Source of the DNA: a virus
Taxonomy: Duplodnaviria; Heunggongvirae; Uroviricota; Caudoviricetes
Virus record (IMG/VR): IMGVR_UViG_2541047907_000003
DNA: 47,013 bases
Reading direction: 5' to 3' (one strand)
Of this stretch, positions 4,187-42,263 are shown piece by piece (positions within the stretch are counted from its first letter, which is position 1; each line of letters begins with the position of its first letter). The notes under the pieces were generated by a model. It made no database searches. It was given only the letters and a program-made list of their open reading frames with translations, and was not told the origin of the DNA. Made by a program: the position numbers and the translations under genes.

Positions 4187-7100
4187 TCAGCTGATACTGA
4201 TACCTGCTGTGGATTTCTTCATCACCACAACCAGCAGATCGCTGATACTGGTTGTTGGTGTCCAGTTATTCGCTCCTGATGAAGATACGGTGAATGTCAG
4301 TGTCAGTGTCCCCTGTCCGGCAGGCATATCTATAACTGAGGAAAATACGCCCTGAGCATCCGTCGTGGACTGATTAAAAATCTCCTGACCATTGCGGGTC
4401 ACTCTTAACCGGCAGGTTGAATACCAGTATGACTGTTGGTTATTACTGTTGAAATTCTCATGCTTACCACCGCGGAATAACACTGGAGGTATCATGACCT
4501 GCCGGTCAAACTTCTGATCATCACTGATTCTTACCGTGATGGTGCCACTGGCATAACTGTTCGTGCGGGGGAAAGACTTGCTGACCGTTTTGACAATATC
4601 GCCTTCAATCTGATTGGCTGACAGTTTCCCCTTAATCTGACAGTTCTCATTAATCGTGACGTTGTTGAGCGTCCCGGAGTTCGCATTCACACTGCCACTG
4701 ATATCCGCATTTTTAGCAGTCAGCTTTCCGTCCGGTGTCAGGGAAAATGCCGGTGGATTTCCACCGCTGGTAATGGTGGGGGCCGTCAGGCGTTTCAGGA
4801 ACACGTCGTTCATGAATATCTGATCGCCCTGACCAACAAACATCGGTTTTGTGTTGCCATTCGCAGGATTAACCATCGCAATCCTGTCCGCCGCCAGCAG
4901 CACCTGACTCTGCATGCCGTCAGGGGTGTTCTCAATACCGGCACCAATACCCGCGATATAAAGGCGTCCGTCCTGCATCTGCTGCAGCTTCACAGCCCAC
5001 ATGCTGTTCAGGTTATTATTTGTATCAACCTGAACCTTCTGTATCTGCTGAATTGCCGCACTCTGGTCTTCCAGTTTCTTATTGACGGTCTGCGTGATTT
5101 CATTGCTGACATCCGTAATGGACGTCCTGATTTCAGCCAGGTCAGGCGCAAGCTGACCGTTATCAATCTGCGTCCACAGCTCCTGAGCCAGATGGGTTTT
5201 CCCTATCTCGCCTTTGAAAAAATCCAGATAGCCGGATGCATCATCACTCGGCTGACCAACAGCCTCCACGAATGCCGATTTGCCAACGGTGTTCACACTG
5301 CGAACGTAAAAATAATAATCATGGCCCGGCCTGATATTGATACTGGCGGCTATCCAGTACAGCGCCGTGCCAAGATAGCGCGCTGTGGTTTCAACCTGCC
5401 TGATACCAGCAATCCGTTTTTCCGAGAACCAGAACTCAAACTGTACTGTCGGGTCATAAACCGCAAGATGCGGCGTGGCAGTTATCTGAAAATAGCCCGG
5501 CGTCAGCTCAATCCGCGACGGTGCTACCGGTGCGGCAATCCGGAACGATACCGACGCCGGATCGCCCTGCTGTCCCCACGCATTTACCGCCCGGACTGTC
5601 AGCGTGTACCGTCCCAGCGCCAGTTGCGTGAAGCGGTATGTGGTTTCCGTCGTCCGGGCCGTGCTGACCAGCCGCTCACTGCCGTCATCCGCTGCCACGG
5701 TCAGGCGAAGCATAAAGCTCACCCCCTTCACCACCTTCGGCGTGTCCCAGCGCGCCGGCACCTGATATTCCCCGCTGTCTGCGGTGACTTCGGCAGTCAG
5801 GTGCTGCACCGCTGGCGGCGTGACACCATTCACCGTGCCGCTCTGGTCGCCGTCAAAGTGCGCCCCGTTATCCACGATGGCTTCTTTTTCCGGTACATGC
5901 TGCACGGCAGTGATGGCATACGTGCCGTCATCGTTCTCACGGATACTCACACAGCGGAACAGGCGCTGACGCAACGTCGGCAACTTCAGCCCCCACACAC
6001 TGTATTCTGCAACGCCGTCAGGAACCCGGTTCACTTTCACCTTAAGTCCGTCGGTGACGGACTGAACCTCCACGCTGACCGGATTACCACTTCCGTCAAC
6101 CAGGCTTATCAGCGTGGTACCGGAGGATGGCAGCGTGATTTCACGGTCGAGCGTCAGCGTCCGGGTCTGGCTGTTCACCGCCAGCACGCGACCACCGGTG
6201 CTGATACCGGCATAGTCATCATCGCAGATTTCAATGACATCGCCCGGTACATGGCGAAGCCCTTCTGCGCCCACGCTGAAATCCACGGTCTGCGTCTCCA
6301 GCAGTTCCGTTTTAATCAGCCACAGCCCGGCGCGGTGTGCCTGCCCCCGGCTGGTACAGCCAAAAGCATCCATCTTCGTGACGTTACGACCGTAACGGGC
6401 AATGGCCTGCGTGTCCTCCACAAGCTCTGTCGCCGTCTCCCAGCCGTTATTCGGGTCAATCCAGTTCACCTCAACGGCATTATGGCGGTCCTTCAGGGCG
6501 CTGAAGCTGTAGCGGAACGGCGCGCCATCATCCGGCATCACCACATTACTGCGGTTATAGGTCCACACCTTATCCGACGGTCGGTCCTGCACGAACGTCA
6601 GCGTCTGCCCGTTCCATACCGGCATACAGCGCATCGCCGAGCAGAAATCACTGAGAACATCCCACGCCTTACGCTGTGTGGTCAGGTACGCATTACAGGT
6701 GATGCGCGGCTCCGTGCCGCCAAAACCGTCCGGCACCGACTGCTCGCAATGCTGGCCGATGACATACAGCGCCCATTTGTCCACATCCGCCGCACCAAGA
6801 CGTTTCCCCATGCCGTAGCGCGGATGGGTCAGCATATCCCACAGACACCAGGCCATGTTGTTGCTGTATGCTGGCTTAAACGTTCCGTCCCAGATACCGC
6901 TGTATTGCCGCGTCTGCGGGTTATAGTTCGACGGCACCTGCAGAATGCGTCCGCGAAGATGATAATTACGGCTCACCTGCTGGCTGCCGAACTGCTCCGA
7001 GTCCACCTGCACGCCGACCAGTGCCGTGTTCGGGTAGCACTGTTTCACATCGATGATTTCGGTGTATGACGACCAGAGCGTTTTGTTCTGCAGCTGGTCT

Positions 7101-8400: not shown

Positions 8401-9041
8401 TTGTCGGTGTACCTCTCTCGTTTACTCAGTTGTTCAGGAATATGGTGCAGCAGCTCACCGTCACCACAGTAAATGGCGGCATGATTCGGCACCGATGAAC
8501 CAAAACAGCACAGCAGCACATCGCCCGGCTGCGCCGCTGACAACGGCACCTGATACAGCCCTGTGGCCTCCAGATTATCCAGATAGAGATTCTGACCGTG
8601 ACGCCACCAGTCATCCCCGCGATGAAAATCCGGCATCTCAATCCCCGCCAGATGATAAGCATCCCGGAACAGCGTGTAACAGTCCGTCACCCCGTGCTCA
8701 AAGCGCCGCCCGGTGAGATGCGGCACACAGCGGAACTTATGAATCGCCCCCCGGCAGACCAGCCACCACGGCAAATCACTCTGCACCTGCAGCCGCCGGT
8801 CAGCCTCACTCAGCCAGGGCAGACCACCGGGGTGGCTGTGGACCAGCGCCACAATCTCACCCTGCATTTCTGCCTGCAGCCAGTCCTCCGGAGCCATCCG
8901 GAAATAATCCTCCGGCTCACCGGAAATATTCACGCCGGGAAAATATCTTTCCCCCTCCGGCGCTCTCACCACGAAGCCGCACGACTCCGCTGGCGCACAT
9001 CGTCGGGCGTGCGCCAGAATCGCTGATTCTGTCTGTGTCAT
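8298..9041 (-). CDS. K: tail assembly protein K (MPN/JAB plus NlpC/P60-like domains)
   Basis: 247-aa ORF MTQTESAILAHARRCAPAESCGFVV...HSHPGG (JAB-like) ...DCYTLF...NHAAIY (NlpC/P60-like Cys/His); overlaps I by about 100 nt. Confidence 0.8.
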   Translation of the reverse strand: MTQTESAILAHARRCAPAESCGFVVRAPEGERYFPGVNISGEPEDYFRMAPEDWLQAEMQGEIVALVHSHPGGLPWLSEADRRLQVQSDLPWWLVCRGAIHKFRCVPHLTGRRFEHGVTDCYTLFRDAYHLAGIEMPDFHRGDDWWRHGQNLYLDNLEATGLYQVPLSAAQPGDVLLCCFGSSVPNHAAIYCGDGELLHHIPEQLSKRERYTDKWQRRTHSLWRHREWHASAFTGICNDLAAASTFV

Positions 9042-10074: not shown

Positions 10075-12632
10075 CGTCCACCTCCGGAGAACAGGCCACC
10101 ATCACGCATCTGTGTCTGAATTTCATCACGGGCACCCTTGCGGGCCATGTCATACACCGCCTTCAGAGCAGCCGGACCTATCTGCCCGTTCGTGCCGTCG
10201 TTGTTAATCACCACATGGTTATTCTGCTCAAACGTCCCGGACGCCTGCGACCGGCTGTCAGCCAGACTGCCCGGTGTACCGACATAACCACCGGTGGCAT
10301 AGCCGCGCATCAGCCGGTAGAGATTCCCCACGCCAATCCGGCTGGTTGCCTCCTTCGTGAAGACAAATTCACCACGGTGAACAATCCCCGCTGGCTCATA
10401 TTTGCCGCCGGTTCCCGTAAATCCTCCGGTTGCAAAATGGAATTTCGCCGCAGCGGCCTGAATGGCTGTACCGCCTGACGCGGATGCGCCGCCACCAACA
10501 GCCCCGCCAATGGCGCTGCCGATACTCCCGACAATCCCCACCATTGCCTGCTTAAGCAGAATTTCTGTCATCATGGACAGCACGGAACGGGTGAAGCTGC
10601 GCCAGTTCTGCTCACTGCCGGTCAGCATCGCCGCCATATTCTGCGCAATACCATCAAAGGTCTGCGTGGCTGCACTTTTAACCTGCGACATACTGTCCGT
10701 GGCGCTCTCTTCCCACTCACTCCAGCCGGACTTCAGGCCTGCCATCCAGCTCCCGCGAAGCTGGTCTTCAGCCGCCCAGGTCTTTTTCTGCTCTGACATG
10801 ACGTTATTCAGCGCCAGAGAATTATCGCCATACTGTTCCTTCAGGCGCTGTTCTGTGGCTTCCCGCGCTGCCTGCCGGTCAGTCAGCCCCCGGTTTTTCG
10901 CATCAATGGCGGCCCGTTTTGCCCGTTGCTGCTGTGCGAATTTATCCGCCTGCTGCGCCAGCGCGTTCAGGCGCTCCTGATACGTAACCTTGTCGCCAAG
11001 TGCAGCCAGCTGGCGTTTGTACTCCAGCGTCTCATCTTTATGCGCCAGCAGGGATTTCTCCTGTGCAGACAGCTGGCGACGTTGTGCCGCCTCCTCCAGT
11101 ACCGCGAACTGACTTTCAGCCTTCCACAAATCCCGGCGCTGCTGGCTGATTTTCTCATTTGCTCCGGCATGCTTCTCCAGCGTCCGGAGTTCAGCCTGAA
11201 GCGTCAGCAGGGCAGCATGAGCACTGTCTTCCTGACGATCGCCCGCAGACACCTTCACGCCGGACTGTTTCGGCTTTTTCAGCGTCGCTTCATAGTCCTT
11301 TTTCGCCGCCGCCATCAGCGTGTTGTAATCTGCCTGCAGAATTTTCCCGTCCTTCAGTGCCTTGTTCAGTTCTTCCTGACGGGCGGTATATTTCTCCAGC
11401 GGCGTCTGCAGCCGTTCGTAAGCTTTCTGCGCCTCTTCGGTATATTTCAGCCGTGACGCTTCAGTATCGCTCTGCTGCTGCGCATTTTTGTCCTGTTGAC
11501 TCTGCTGTTCAGCCTTCTTTCTCGCGGCTTCAAGCGCAAGACGGGCCTTTTCACGATCATCCCAGTAACGCGCCTGCGCTTCATCGTTAACGAAATAATC
11601 ATCCTTGCGCAGACTCCAGATGTCGTCCGCTTTCTTAAACGCAGCCTCTGCCTTAATCAGCATCTCCTGCGCGGTATCAGGACGACCAGTATCCAGCACC
11701 GCATCCCACATGGATTTGAATGCCCGCGCTGTCCTGTCTGCCCAGGTCTCCAGCGTACCCATGTTCTCTTTCAGGCGGCGGGTCTGGTCATCAAACCCTT
11801 TCGTCGCGGCCTCGTTCGCAGCCTGCAATGCCCCGGCTTCATCGCCGGAATGCTGCAACTGAGCAACATACGCAATCTGCTCCGCCGTCACGTTATGGAA
11901 CTGGCGTGCCATCGCTGTCAGCCCTGACGTCGGGTCTGTGGTCAGCTTCCCGAAGGCTTCAGCGACCTTGTCCACCTCCACGCCGGATGCAGAGGAGAAA
12001 CGCGCCACACTCTGGCTGATGGATGCAATCTGAGCCTCACCGCTTACTCCCGCCTTAACCAGTGCGCTGAGTGACTCGCTGGTCTGGTTAAACGTCAGCC
12101 CTGCCGCCTGCCCGGCTCTGGACAGGACCAGCATACGATCTGCCGTCAGACCCGACTGATTGCCGGAAAGGACCAGCGTTTTGTTGAAATCGGACAGGGT
12201 TGAGTTGCCCTGATACCAGGCATACGCCAGCGCACCGGTCGCCACCGCCAGCGAGGTGGCCCCGACCATCGGCAGGGTGATCGCACCGGCAAGCCCCCTG
12301 AACATGGGGATCATCCCGCCGAAGGAGTCCTTCACCTGACCACCCTGTTGCAGCAGGATCAGCCACGGACTTTGCCCGCCTGCAAGCTGCGTGGCCACGT
12401 CAGTGAACTGTGCAGGCAGCATACGCATGGCGGCTTTATACTGCCCGACGGAAATCCCCGCTTTCTGTGCAGCCAGCGCCTGCCGGCTCATCGACTGTTC
12501 AACGACTGCCGCTGTTTTTTTCGCATCAGTTTCCGTACCGGAAAAATGACGCCTGACTCTGGCCATCTGCTCGTCAAATCTGGCCGCATCCAGACTTAAA
12601 TCAACGACCAGATCGCCTACCGGTTCAGCCAT
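10071..12632 (-). CDS. H: tail tape measure protein H
   Basis: 853-aa ORF, same length as lambda H; coiled-coil-rich centre, Gly-rich C-terminal region. Confidence 0.95.
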   Translation of the reverse strand: MAEPVGDLVVDLSLDAARFDEQMARVRRHFSGTETDAKKTAAVVEQSMSRQALAAQKAGISVGQYKAAMRMLPAQFTDVATQLAGGQSPWLILLQQGGQVKDSFGGMIPMFRGLAGAITLPMVGATSLAVATGALAYAWYQGNSTLSDFNKTLVLSGNQSGLTADRMLVLSRAGQAAGLTFNQTSESLSALVKAGVSGEAQIASISQSVARFSSASGVEVDKVAEAFGKLTTDPTSGLTAMARQFHNVTAEQIAYVAQLQHSGDEAGALQAANEAATKGFDDQTRRLKENMGTLETWADRTARAFKSMWDAVLDTGRPDTAQEMLIKAEAAFKKADDIWSLRKDDYFVNDEAQARYWDDREKARLALEAARKKAEQQSQQDKNAQQQSDTEASRLKYTEEAQKAYERLQTPLEKYTARQEELNKALKDGKILQADYNTLMAAAKKDYEATLKKPKQSGVKVSAGDRQEDSAHAALLTLQAELRTLEKHAGANEKISQQRRDLWKAESQFAVLEEAAQRRQLSAQEKSLLAHKDETLEYKRQLAALGDKVTYQERLNALAQQADKFAQQQRAKRAAIDAKNRGLTDRQAAREATEQRLKEQYGDNSLALNNVMSEQKKTWAAEDQLRGSWMAGLKSGWSEWEESATDSMSQVKSAATQTFDGIAQNMAAMLTGSEQNWRSFTRSVLSMMTEILLKQAMVGIVGSIGSAIGGAVGGGASASGGTAIQAAAAKFHFATGGFTGTGGKYEPAGIVHRGEFVFTKEATSRIGVGNLYRLMRGYATGGYVGTPGSLADSRSQASGTFEQNNHVVINNDGTNGQIGPAALKAVYDMARKGARDEIQTQMRDGGLFSGGGR

Positions 12633-13463
12633 ACCGGACTCCTCCTGCGATCCCTTCTGATACTGTCATCAGCATTACGTCATCCTCCGTCATGTCCGCC
12701 ACATCCGGGGAAGCGGGGATAACTTCATTCCCGTCCGGGCCAAAACGAACGCCTCCGGCAAGCCCTGCCGCTTTCTGCATCAGCACATCATCTTCAGGCT
12801 CTTCGTCAGCCTCGCGCCGGTTCAGCAGACTGAAATCCAGCGGATGCATCTCCGGATCGCTGAAAAACAGGCTGAGCACGGTGTACGTCAGCCCGGAAAA
12901 GTGCATATCCAGCAGAACATCATGAAAATAATGGGTACTGTAAAAGCGGTGCCAGTCGGCATACTCCGTGGATGACATCCCGGCAAGCATGGCGCGCCAG
13001 TCGGGTCGCCCCATCTCACGCGCCAGTTTCAGGGCAAAACTCAGCTCACCGTCGAACACTTTCCCGCAGAAACAGGCTCTGCAGACCCGGCGTCCTCTGC
13101 CTGTTCAGGAGCATCATTCACCACAAACTCATACATACCGGACAGCCGGTACACCACGTTTTCAGCATGAGAAATTGCCTCTGTGGGCCAGGTGGTAAGC
13201 ACTTCCTGCTCAATCTGTTTAACGGCTTCATTCATGGAAGGCAGCTTTGTCTTCTTCGGATGGTTATGCCACAGGGACATCGCCACCAGAAACGCGCCGG
13301 TTCTGATGGCGTCTTCCACAGTAAACTTCCGGTTGCTGTCTGACTCCGCCTGTTCTGCCTGCCGTTTCATCAGGTCGAGATGCTCAATACGCTGCAGGGC
13401 TGACAGTTCAGAAAGCGTGACGGTCACACCGTTATGTTCAAATGATTCGGTTTTCAGGAACAT
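12625..13463 (-). CDS. tail assembly chaperone G-T fusion, made by programmed -1 ribosomal frameshift
   Basis: G frame (13041..13463) and T frame (12625..13059) overlap at slippery heptamer GGGAAAG (plus-strand CTTTCCC 13059-13065); T frame has no independent ATG (track start is GTG). Confidence 0.85.
13041..13463 (-). CDS. G: tail assembly chaperone G
   Basis: 140-aa ORF MFLKTESFEHNGVTVTLSELSALQRIEHLDLMKRQAEQAESD... ending ...SAGKCSTVS; lambda G-like. Confidence 0.9.
   Translation of the reverse strand: MFLKTESFEHNGVTVTLSELSALQRIEHLDLMKRQAEQAESDSNRKFTVEDAIRTGAFLVAMSLWHNHPKKTKLPSMNEAVKQIEQEVLTTWPTEAISHAENVVYRLSGMYEFVVNDAPEQAEDAGSAEPVSAGKCSTVS
13059..13065 (-). other. programmed -1 frameshift slippery site (G GGA AAG) for G-T
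   Basis: heptamer read directly, 5 codons before the G stop; -1 shift gives GKVFDGELS..., continuing into the T ORF. Confidence 0.85.
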
Positions 13464-13478
13464 CGCTGACTCTCCGGA

Positions 13479-14219
13479 TTAACTGGCGGTGACGTTGATT
13501 TCTGCAACCGCAGCAAACTCACCATTACCAGATACGACCGGAATGTTGACCTTGCCTGCAGCAACACCTTTCACGGTGATGGTCATACCACTGACCGACA
13601 CGGTGGCTTTTGTTTTATCCGCAGACACCGCACGGAAGCTCTTGTCGGTTGCGCCTTCCGGCTGGAATGCCACGGTCAGCGTGGTGCTCTGCCCTTTCAC
13701 CACCGAAGTGCTGGCAGGCGTCACGGTCATGCCGGTTGCCGCTGTTACCGTGCTGCGATCTTCTGCCATTGACGGACGTCCCACGTTGGTGACTTTCACC
13801 GTGCGGGTGATCACTTCCTTCGCCGTCACCGCTTTACCGATACTGCTGACCCAGCCACGGAACACATCGACCGTGCCGTTCGGGAAGCGGATTTTATAGG
13901 CACGGGTATCACCTTCATTAAACCACGCCAGCAGCGCCTGCTGCCCCTGCTCTCCGGGCATCCACGCCAGCGTGAAGCTGGTATCTCCGGCGGATTTCTG
14001 CCCCTGCCCGGTCGCAGTCCAGTCTGCATCTTCATCATCGAGATAGCTGTCGTCATAGGACTCAGCGGTCAGTTCGCCGGGCGTCAGGTCTTTAACTTTT
14101 GCCAGACGCGACCAGTCAACGTCTGAAAGCGGATTCGCATAAGGGTCACCGCTCCCCTTATAAACCCACAGGGTGGTCCCGGCACCTTTCACCGGCATTG
14201 TAGGATTTGGTACAGGCAT
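13479..14219 (-). CDS. V: major tail tube protein V with C-terminal Ig-like domain
   Basis: track ORF 13479..14249; start placed at [24 protein letters not shown] (lambda V N-terminus), 10 codons inside the ORF. Confidence 0.9.
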
Positions 14220-14226
14220 AGCGTCC

Positions 14227-14622
14227 TCACATTTCATAGGTAATGACATAAGTCAGATCGGCTGAACTCCACAGGCCCGCATCATCGTCGCGCCGGTAGT
14301 CATAGCCGCTGGCCACCATACTGGTGATCAAATCTGACAGTGCCGGGATATCGCTCATCACCGGATAAATCCGGGACTCCATCCACGCATCCAGCTCTGA
14401 ATCCGGCACCTGAGCAGGCAGGAAAACTTCGATATGCAGCTCCGCCTGCCAGGTATCGCTGTCCAGCTCTTCGCCCGTGTATTCAGCGCCGGTGAGATAA
14501 ACGGCAACTGCCGGAAAATCCGCCTCATCAAAAACAGCGGGGCGACCATCAAAAAACGTCGCCCCGGTGTCATGCTTCTCCAGTGCATCCAGTACGGCTG
14601 CACGGAGTTCAGTATGTTTCAT
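14227..14622 (-). CDS. U: tail terminator protein U
   Basis: 131-aa [51 protein letters not shown]...; lambda U-like. Confidence 0.9.
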
Positions 14623-24797: not shown

Positions 24798-25068
24798 GAT
24801 GTTACCGTAGTATGTGAGTATCCATCGAATAGACACCAAGCAAAAAAGCTCCCGAAGGAGCCTTCATTTTCACTTTTTTAAATCCAACGACAGACGGCTG
24901 GCATTTAAGTATTGTGAAATATTATCAAATGTAATCATCATTGATTTACAAAAGATACATTTTGCCCCGAAAGGATTCATGTCAGAAACATCAAAAGATG
25001 ATGTTCTATACTGGGAACCATGACAACACGGGCATCTAAAGTGAATATGGTTTGTAATATTGTCTACC

Positions 25069-25281
25069 TCAAAGCGCCACTACATGAACAGCGGCAGGAC
25101 CTTTAGGTCCGTTCTCAATACCAAATTCAACTTCCTGATTCTCAGTTAATGTTTTGAAATCGTTGCTCTGAATTGCTGAGAAATGGACAAACACATCTTT
25201 GCTGCCATCTTTCGGCGTGATGAAACCAAAACCTTTTTCAGGGTTAAACCATTTCACTAAACCAGTCATTTTGTTAGACAT
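25069..25281 (-). CDS. cspI: cold-shock domain protein (CspA family)
   Basis: 70-aa [56 protein letters not shown] with RNP1 motif KGFGFI and RNP2 VFVHF. Confidence 0.7.
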
Positions 25282-25643
25282 AATTATTACCTTTTGAAGA
25301 AATTAGCCCTTGGGCAGAATGGTCCGAAAAAAAATATCAGAGAGAAAAACCAACAAGGAAATCTCAAGAGGTACAAATAATAAAATTATAACAATGACTG
25401 CTTCAGATAAATTTGTAACAAACCAGAACACCATTAACGCATGATTAACCACCCATAGCAAGGATTACTTTTGTAAAGAAAAACACAGCAATGAAAGAAT
25501 AGCTTTATTTATTAATAAAACGTGTCATTCTGATTAAGACCTTTTATCTTACCCTTAAGATTTCAGGAATTTTGGCTCATGGAAGAGTCCTTTTTATTTA
25601 AATTTTACATTCCGCGATGTAAATGTTCCGATTTAATATTACC

Positions 25644-27668: not shown

Positions 27669-27950
27669 TGAGATTGTGGTGCTTTTTGTGGGAGTCATCC
27701 ACTTACGCACTTTGTTTTGCGATGCCAGCAGTTAGCTTCTGCTGTGAAACTATTCATGCAGCAAACCTGCACTTCACCACAATGGTTAGCATACTTTTCC
27801 TGATTAAGATTTTGCCAAATATGCTGGCCATTGTTTCATGTATTGGACCTCCTTACTTTTTATTAAAGAGATCCAATATTCACTACTCTGTCCGTATCTC
27901 TACTCAGGCATCAGCCTTCTTCGTTATCGTATACAGACGAGCGATGAATT

Positions 27951-28166
27951 TTAATCAGTAATGATGACATTTGCTGCTGCAGGACCTTTAGCACCACTCT
28001 CTATAGAGAAGGTAACCTTTTGACCTTCAAATAAGGTTCGATAATTATCATTCTGAATCGCAGAAAAATGCACAAACACATCTTTACTACCATCAACAGG
28101 AGAAATAAAGCCGAAACCTTTATCAGCGTTAAACCATTTTACTAAACCAGTCATTTTATTTGACAT
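27951..28166 (-). CDS. cspB: cold-shock domain protein (CspA family)
   Basis: 71-aa [56 protein letters not shown]. Confidence 0.7.
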
Positions 28167-28466
28167 TCTACATTCCTTAACTTGAGCCTTTCGGCATAAA
28201 TGGTTTGCATAACAGAAACGACTTCGTACTTAATTGGAGAGACTCAAAGAAGGAATAAGTGAATAACACCTGAAATGAGAACTGCTTTAGTAAACTACTT
28301 CGTATATCGTCTGTTCTTCAAACCGACGCAATCATTAACGCATAGTTGAACATATGAAGCAATGTTTATTTTAGACATCCAGCCATCTTCAACCCCATCA
28401 AAAAACTATAGCTTTCTTCAGGAACGTGTGTATAGTGCGCCAAGTTATCAGTATTAAGGAATTTTT

Positions 28467-29866: not shown

Positions 29867-30955
29867 TTACGCCAGTACGCCAATTGCCAGCGCGCGATCG
29901 ATAAAACGAAATATCAGCTCCAGTTGGGAGCCATACTTCTCTTCAAATGCCACTGTATCCGTATGCAGCTCGTTGTGATGCTTTCTGCACAAAGGCAACA
30001 CAAAGAGATCATGTGCTTTTGTTCCCATTCCGCCCTGCCCGTGACCAATCAGATGATGCGGATCGTCGGCTGGCATACCGCAGCAAGCACACGGCTGTGT
30101 CTTAACCCAACGTGTGTATTTCTCCTTAACCCAGCGGCGACGTTTAGGCAGCTTCATGAAAGATTCCGGAGACTCTGGATCAACGGTGATGCTTACCACC
30201 GTCTTTTCCTGTGGTAGTTTTTGTTGCTGGTGGGCGTAAGGCAACGGTGCAAGATTTTTTGTGCGTTGTTTCAATATGCTGGTGGCGGTCTGCTCTCCCG
30301 GTACGATGTCGCTTTCGCGGTACACCGAGCAGATTTTTTCCGCTGGTAATCCCAGCGAACGACGCGATACAGCCTCAGGTAGTGCATCCACCACCTGATT
30401 GCAGACCGCCCACCAGGATAATTCAGCCAAAGATAATTCCCGCTCCTGCGTACCGCTTATTGCGTGACGGATGACGTCAATCACCCATGCTGTCAGATTT
30501 TGTTGAGCAAGCAGCTCCAGTGATTCCGATGTCTGGTCACGCAGTTGGTTGTCGCAGTGCCAACACAACACCATTGCGCCGGTACCATAACGGTGAATGA
30601 CTGTTTCAGTGTGATGGTAATCGCCATTAGGCCACTGGCAGGATGTAACATGACGTAATAGCCAGTCAGACAATGAGCCAACGCCGCCAGCAGCACGAAT
30701 CACCCGTTCGTTACTAAAAAACGGCAGCAATGTTTTGTCTTCCGCCAGCGGCTGGCCAACGGCAGGAACGACTCCGGATGGCAGATTACGCATGCTTTTT
30801 GGTTCCGGTTCCACCAGCACTCGAGGATTATGAAATATCTGTATGGATTCACGGCCCGGCTTAAGGACCACCAGCCCAAGCTCAGGCACCAGAACAGGTC
30901 TAAGTAATACCCGCACGTTACCTCCAGATCCGTTGCTGGAAAGTGCGGGACGCAC
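29867..30955 (-). CDS. DUF968-like protein with C-terminal HNH-like Cys/His motif (YdfU-like)
   Basis: 362-aa ORF; C-terminus CACCGMPADDPHHLIGHGQGGMGTKAHDLFVLPLCRKHHNELH; true start uncertain. Confidence 0.6.
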   Translation of the reverse strand: MRPALSSNGSGGNVRVLLRPVLVPELGLVVLKPGRESIQIFHNPRVLVEPEPKSMRNLPSGVVPAVGQPLAEDKTLLPFFSNERVIRAAGGVGSLSDWLLRHVTSCQWPNGDYHHTETVIHRYGTGAMVLCWHCDNQLRDQTSESLELLAQQNLTAWVIDVIRHAISGTQERELSLAELSWWAVCNQVVDALPEAVSRRSLGLPAEKICSVYRESDIVPGEQTATSILKQRTKNLAPLPYAHQQQKLPQEKTVVSITVDPESPESFMKLPKRRRWVKEKYTRWVKTQPCACCGMPADDPHHLIGHGQGGMGTKAHDLFVLPLCRKHHNELHTDTVAFEEKYGSQLELIFRFIDRALAIGVLA

Positions 30956-42206: not shown

Positions 42207-42263
42207 TTCTGGTGACGTTTGGCGGTATCAGTTTTACTCCGTGACTGCTCTGCCGCCGTTTTT
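42207..42263 (+). ncRNA. dicF: DicF small regulatory RNA
   Basis: TTTCTGGTGACGTTTGGCGGTATCAGTTTTACTCCGTGACTGCTCTGCCGCC followed by GTTTTT; matches the DicF sequence as I recall it, immediately upstream of dicB. Confidence 0.8.

Follow-up and report, generated by a model that had tools for sequence, protein, structure and literature searches.

The window analysed here, the whole stretch of 47,013 nucleotides of a Caudoviricetes virus record (IMG/VR IMGVR_UViG_2541047907_000003), is a mosaic lambdoid prophage that runs from tail-fibre assembly to the integrase, with PhiR42_1 as its best match. Two overlapping open reading frames, G and T, are located between the gene of the major tail protein and that of the tape measure protein, in the order V-G-T-H, with all genes of the region encoded on the minus strand (Table 1). 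The product of G is identical to lambda G at 133 of 140 amino acids (95%) and matches both the Pfam family PF06894 (Phage_TAC_2; 2e-59, 199 bits against a cut-off of 27) and the NCBIfam equivalog TIGR01674 (4e-63, 211 bits against a cut-off of 74). T shares 143 of 144 amino acids (99%) with lambda T, with matches to PF06223 (Phage_tail_T; 54 bits, cut-off 25.9) and to the equivalog TIGR01715 (189 bits, cut-off 77). A sequence search of the PDB with G-T gave no match at E <= 0.01. Shine-Dalgarno (SD) complementarity was measured throughout as the best duplex formed by the 17 nt upstream of a start with the 3' end of 16S rRNA. By this measure the ATG of H, which overlaps the end of T, is preceded by a strong SD sequence (-10.3 kcal/mol). 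An ATG at 14249, annotated as the start in PhiR70_1, would lengthen the V reading frame by 10 codons at its 5' end; SD complementarity is better for the lambda-type start at 14219 (-5.9 vs -2.2 kcal/mol).

Table 1. Features of the G-T region and its neighbouring tail genes (positions in the window)
Feature	Position	Strand	Description
V, major tail tube protein	13479..14219	-	Phage_TTP_12 and Big_2 matches
G, tail assembly chaperone, 140 aa, zero-frame product	13041..13463	-	ATG 13463 to TGA 13043-13041
Slippery heptamer G_GGA_AAG	13059..13065	-	GGGAAAG; Gly-Lys in the zero frame and in the -1 frame
G/T overlap zone	13041..13104	-	-1 frame already open, beginning 13 codons ahead of the heptamer; ends with the G stop
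T reading frame, 144 codons from the nominal GTG	12625..13059	-	-1 relative to G
Predicted gpGT fusion, 279 aa	12625..13463	-	G codons 1-135, slip back by one base at 13059, then T frame
H, tape measure protein, 853 aa	10071..12632	-	TMP_2 and Tape_meas_lam_C matches

Several other elements were identified in the window. An IS629-like insertion sequence of the IS3 family occupies positions 38047-39356 (-; 1310 bp) and carries 25-nt terminal inverted repeats. Its orfA starts from the ATG at 39302 and has an A6 run (TGGAAAAAATGA) at its end, orfB with an rve integrase core lies in the -1 frame, and the Rfam ALIL pseudoknot matches at 38905-39021 with 120 bits. With this orfA-orfB pair, the window contains two programmed -1 frameshifts, and the one in the IS element is equipped with a dedicated RNA stimulator. 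A further transposase-like ORF of 446 aa with HTH_28/HTH_29 and rve_3 domains (33786-35126, -) suggests another IS element in the early region, and the adjoining ORF of 495 aa (35475-36962, -) had no Pfam match. Two full-length matches to the cspA thermoregulator 5' UTR, at 25042-25427 (-) and 27935-28327 (-) with 113 and 159 bits, imply two cold-shock-protein genes in the late and lysis region of the prophage. Rfam matches at gathering level were also obtained for the sok antitoxin RNA of a hok/sok-type module (35205-35371, -), for the DicF antisense sRNA (42207-42258, +) and for the IS009 sRNA (132-330, -), the latter adjoining a tail-fibre assembly gene.

Position and phase of the slippery heptamer

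Read on the minus strand, positions 13065 to 13041 are GGGAAAG TGT TCG ACG GTG AGC TGA. Counted from 0, the first base of the heptamer has offset 398 in the G reading frame and hence phase 2, so that its zero-frame codons are G, GGA and AAG; it is the sole occurrence of GGGAAAG in this phase within G. Five sense codons follow in the zero frame before the TGA. An earlier note on this DNA, made from its sequence alone, had placed G_GGA_AAG five codons before the G stop and delimited the site as 13041-13065. Both statements are exact according to phasing, codon count and stop, the interval beginning with the first G of GGGAAAG and closing with the final base of the stop codon. The same note had the T frame open exactly at the heptamer, which is wrong: the upstream stop of this frame is the TGA at 13107-13105, and the frame opens at 13104, 13 codons ahead of the heptamer, giving a G/T overlap of 20 codons. 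This error leaves the conclusion of a G-T fusion unchanged. The likeness to lambda tail assembly, also drawn in the note, is borne out by 87 nt identical to lambda NC_001416, comprising 22 nt upstream, the heptamer and 58 nt downstream, by the identities of G and T given above and by the same gene order. Beyond the G stop, the -1 frame runs for 138 codons and ends at 12625. A -1 slip at the heptamer would read GGG AAA GTG TTC GAC GGT GAG CTG..., that is ...GK VFDGELSFALKLAREMGRPDWRAML..., and the predicted gpGT carries the junction ...PVSAGK/VFDGELSF..., the slash marking the transition from G to T.

As a bare motif, GGGAAAG is present in 11 copies in the window compared with 6.4 +/- 2.8 expected, and 10 of 100 shuffled sequences reach this number. 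Enrichment of the heptamer as such was rejected as evidence, since the count is not significant, and the argument therefore rests on phase, geometry and homology. With respect to geometry, heptamers of the type XXXYYYZ were screened on both strands of the window for three features together: the zero frame had to be free of stops over 80 codons or more on the upstream side and to terminate within 30 codons, and the -1 frame had to continue without a stop over 80 codons or more on the downstream side. Four of 520 heptamers passed this screen. TTTCCCC at 6803 and at 8948 (+) is antisense to tail genes, and the "-1 frame" of TTTTTTA at 30721 (-) is a real ORF of 362 aa (DUF968); none of these three is a credible frameshift site. 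The G/T site alone remains, and it is the only one of the four with a heptamer that is shift-prone in E. coli, where G_GGA_AAG is listed as highly shift-prone (PMC5009743). The same heptamer is the published shift site of lambda G/GT (PMC3296357 Table 1; PMC7618472).

Conservation of the slip site

Close relatives of the locus were compared among IMG/VR records, phage records and bacterial genomes. GGGAAAG is present in 79 of 80 close IMG/VR loci, though 40 other columns of G vary; in the remaining locus (L029) it is replaced by AGGAAAG. The 901-nt G-T region is 99.9% identical to that of PhiR70_1 and 99.8% identical to that of phage 434, and its identity to lambda and 70 other phage records is approximately 95-99%. 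The 434 record contains a joined CDS named "GT tape measure protein chaperone frameshift product". In complete E. coli genomes, the region was found in 3710 of 5426, with a median of two copies per genome. Because of this frequency, an E. coli-like host is plausible.

Diverged phage relatives with 28-85% identity in G display an in-phase A_AAG at the aligned junction in 12 of 13 cases, and the thirteenth, phage 204576 (L087), has a broken G frame. The junction is G_GGA_AAG in lambda and in Stx2a phages, A_AAA_AAG in an Stx1a phage and G_GAA_AAG in HK225, phi80, mEp043, Eeyore, Tritos, phi458 and Gifsy-1. As the G stop of the diverged phages is positioned either five codons or one codon past the slip site, the conserved element is the slip site and not the position of the stop.

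A broader scan, restricted to one genome per species, yielded 80 loci, of which one truncated locus and one Shigella locus with a disrupted G were set aside. All 78 readable, intact species-representative loci, which belong to Enterobacterales, comprise a G-like frame of 130-185 codons overlapping a -1 T frame, and an in-phase N_NNA_AAR within the overlap. The heptamer is GGAAAAG in 49 of these loci and GGGAAAG in 20, and rarer slip sites are A_GAA_AAG (3), G_GTA_AAG (3), G_GCA_AAA (2) and G_GGA_AAA (1). Across Enterobacterales, G_GAA_AAG is thus commoner than the G_GGA_AAG of lambda (loci L114-L175, phages L088-L096); a slip there would leave the tRNA-Glu of the P site opposite GGA, so that its re-pairing would be near-cognate. 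Among 49 distinct junctions, the AAA at heptamer positions 4-6 never varies, conservation at positions 1, 2 and 7 is at least 90%, and the nine columns that follow the heptamer are variable.

Some loci in these comparisons look degraded. L049 has an apparent deletion early in T, and the G frame of L142 (Shigella flexneri) is broken; together with L029 and L087, they probably represent prophages in decay or errors of sequencing. Short contigs (L098-L112, L124, L131, L154), many of them with a coverage of about 1 in the contig name, carry lambda T sequence at 99-100% identity; they come from assemblies labelled Neobacillus, Oceanobacillus, Kitasatospora, Shewanella, Leeuwenhoekiella, Pseudoxanthomonas, Psychrobacter and others. 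Contamination of the assemblies with lambda control DNA is the most likely source of these contigs.

Independent translation of T, RNA stimulators and transcriptional slippage

A rival reading is that T is translated alone, from the GTG at 13059 or from one of the in-frame ATGs at 13014, 12990 and 12978, with the heptamer being incidental. The GTG, whose first base is also the final G of the heptamer, opens the ORF exactly at the annotated T start and is the nominal start in the lambda RefSeq record NC_001416, and separate T coding sequences are found in NC_001416, in PhiR70_1 and in RefSeq PGAP annotations. The statement of the earlier note that T lacks an ATG start accordingly holds for the beginning of T only, given the nominal GTG and the internal ATGs. 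However, none of the four candidates is preceded by an SD match: their duplexes amount to -1.5 to -2.2 kcal/mol, compared with -5.9 for V, -6.6 for G, -10.3 for H, -10.8 for M, -9.6 for U and -10.7 for Z among the neighbouring genes. Residues E5, F8, L12, A13, R14 and E15 of T are invariant among relatives and all lie upstream of the first ATG; in most relatives Phe is encoded in place of this ATG, and the position of the GTG is occupied by GCC, GCA or GTC elsewhere. In every intact relative, the T frame is already open upstream of the slip site, and the lambda literature describes gpGT with the T part as a domain of the fusion (PMC5009743). A functional T start with its own ribosome-binding site, named in the note as one finding that would contradict it, was looked for by SD energy without a match, and its reading that T can be expressed only as a G-T fusion is supported, because the possible T starts lack an SD match and conserved T residues precede every ATG. 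As judged from the sequence, independent initiation of T is unlikely, and we consider it very improbable that T is translated on its own next to a merely incidental heptamer.

A second possibility leaves the lambda-like frameshift in place and adds an irregular downstream hairpin (about 13051-12981), starting 7 nt past the heptamer, that tunes its efficiency in this clade. In favour of such tuning, the 99 nt after the heptamer have a minimum-free-energy fold of -40.6 kcal/mol (z = -2.16; 9 of 200 shuffles as good), and in 10 diverged sequences 92% of the cells are paired, with four pairs showing double changes. This pattern did not extend to the 49 distinct junctions from phages and species-representative genomes, where 77% are paired vs 73% in shuffled alignments, many pairs are broken in 20-45% of the sequences and covariation is not in excess (9 double-change pairs vs 7.3; 80 of 500 shuffles reach 9). 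Coding constraint explains the apparent conservation, since the paired segments code for LAREFGRPDWRAML, a strongly conserved motif. The hairpin was rejected as a family-wide stimulator. An upstream internal Shine-Dalgarno stimulator of the dnaX type was likewise rejected, as the 17 nt preceding GGGAAAG (GAGCCUGUUUCUGCGGG, -2.2 kcal/mol) contain nothing SD-like. We conclude that the G/T site has no family-wide stimulatory structure, in line with the literature. Tuning by the hairpin in this clade is unlikely, and fine-tuning of the G:GT ratio by it in the lambda/Stx2a clade is quite doubtful; if hairpin tuning were true, the lambda G-T site would not be stimulator-free, contrary to the general statement. 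The fusion could also stem from RNA polymerase, slipping on the A run during transcription, instead of from ribosomal slippage. A short homopolymer (AAA) is indeed part of the site. Sites of transcriptional slippage typically have long runs, and the run here is shorter, with just three A's (four to six in relatives); the conserved feature is a phase-specific, X_XXY_YYZ-like geometry. Transcriptional slippage makes fusion proteins in other systems (PMC5009743), but the frameshift level in lambda responds to U34 thiolation of tRNA-Lys, a ribosomal property (PMC3296357). We regard slippage of the polymerase at this site as extremely improbable.

Proposed mechanism and comparison with known systems

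The locus almost certainly harbors a programmed -1 ribosomal frameshift of the lambda type, by which two tail assembly chaperones are made from one message. Seen in this DNA itself are the sequence, its phase and reading frames, the homology and gene order, the lack of a ribosome-binding site for T and the conserved slip site. The slip event, its rate and the functions of the proteins are what we infer from lambda, the local sequence being identical. Most ribosomes would read G_GGA_AAG in frame, stop five codons on and release the 140-aa gpG. A few percent would slip back by one base with the Gly and Lys tRNAs on GGA and AAG, and the slipped tRNAs would re-pair with GGG and AAA. Assuming an E. 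coli-like host, the only tRNA-Lys (mnm5s2UUU) would pair weakly with AAG. Slipped ribosomes would then read GTG TTC GAC... in the T frame and bypass the G stop, resulting in a gpGT of 279 aa. By analogy with lambda, the tape measure protein H would be coated by the G part of gpG and gpGT, the T domain would recruit the tail tube protein V, and a G:GT ratio of about 30:1, set by the frequency of the slip, would be needed for correct tail assembly.

These steps follow published work on lambda. The lambda frameshift was demonstrated by Levin et al. 1993, as cited in PMC3296357 and PMC5009743, and approximately 4% of ribosomes make gpGT at G_GGA_AAG. In E. coli, AAG and AAA are both read by one tRNA-Lys (mnm5s2UUU), whose thiolation state alters the gpG:gpGT ratio and phage yield (PMC3296357; PMC7618472). 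The lambda tape measure protein is bound by gpG and by the G part of gpGT, the major tail protein by the T domain; a gpG:gpGT ratio of about 30:1 is critical, and the virion contains neither gpG nor gpGT (PMC5009743, citing Levin 1993 and Xu 2013/2014; PMC4493119). For lambda it has also been demonstrated that the fusion amounts to a few percent of gpG and that tails are not assembled correctly without it, as described in PMC3296357 and PMC5009743 (the latter again on the basis of Levin 1993 and Xu 2013/2014).

For annotation, T should be described as the frameshift-extended G-T (join 13463..13059, 13059..12625, minus strand) and not as a free-standing gene; a separate T CDS is still carried by the lambda RefSeq record and by PGAP-annotated E. 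coli genomes. The site would set the proportion in which gpG and gpGT, the chaperones that build the tail tube around the tape measure, are produced, and the intact slip site suggests that the tail module of the prophage is functional. Being base-for-base identical to lambda around the slip site, it is real but ordinary, and nothing new on frameshifting or tail assembly is learned from it.

As in G/T, orfA-orfB of the IS3 family, represented in the window by the IS629-like copy, combines a -1 shift at an A-rich site with a position at the end of the upstream ORF and a fusion product; its proteins are unrelated to G and T, and it harbors the ALIL stimulator that is absent from the G-T site. The junctions of N15, HK225, phi80 and Gifsy-1 resemble the present locus in that their G and T are homologous, T is again in the -1 frame and an A_AAG stands in phase at the aligned position, whereas their P-site codon is GAA (G_GAA_AAG) and not GGA, with an identity in G of only 28-46%. 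In Gifsy-1, Tritos and phi458, the G stop is located one codon after the slip site. Phage 434 (OL657226) and PhiR70_1 (PV340577) carry essentially the same allele of the G-T region; the remainder of the window is mosaic and best matched by PhiR42_1. Lambda G/G-T (Levin, Hendrix & Casjens 1993; NC_001416 9711-10549) likewise displays G_GGA_AAG, five codons to the stop and a 20-codon overlap, and has the V-G-T-H order and an H of 853 aa in common with the prophage, which differs from it by seven amino acid substitutions in G, one in T and a few silent changes. No functional difference from lambda G/G-T is apparent, and the site presents itself as the textbook lambda G/G-T frameshift in a near-identical, already known copy.
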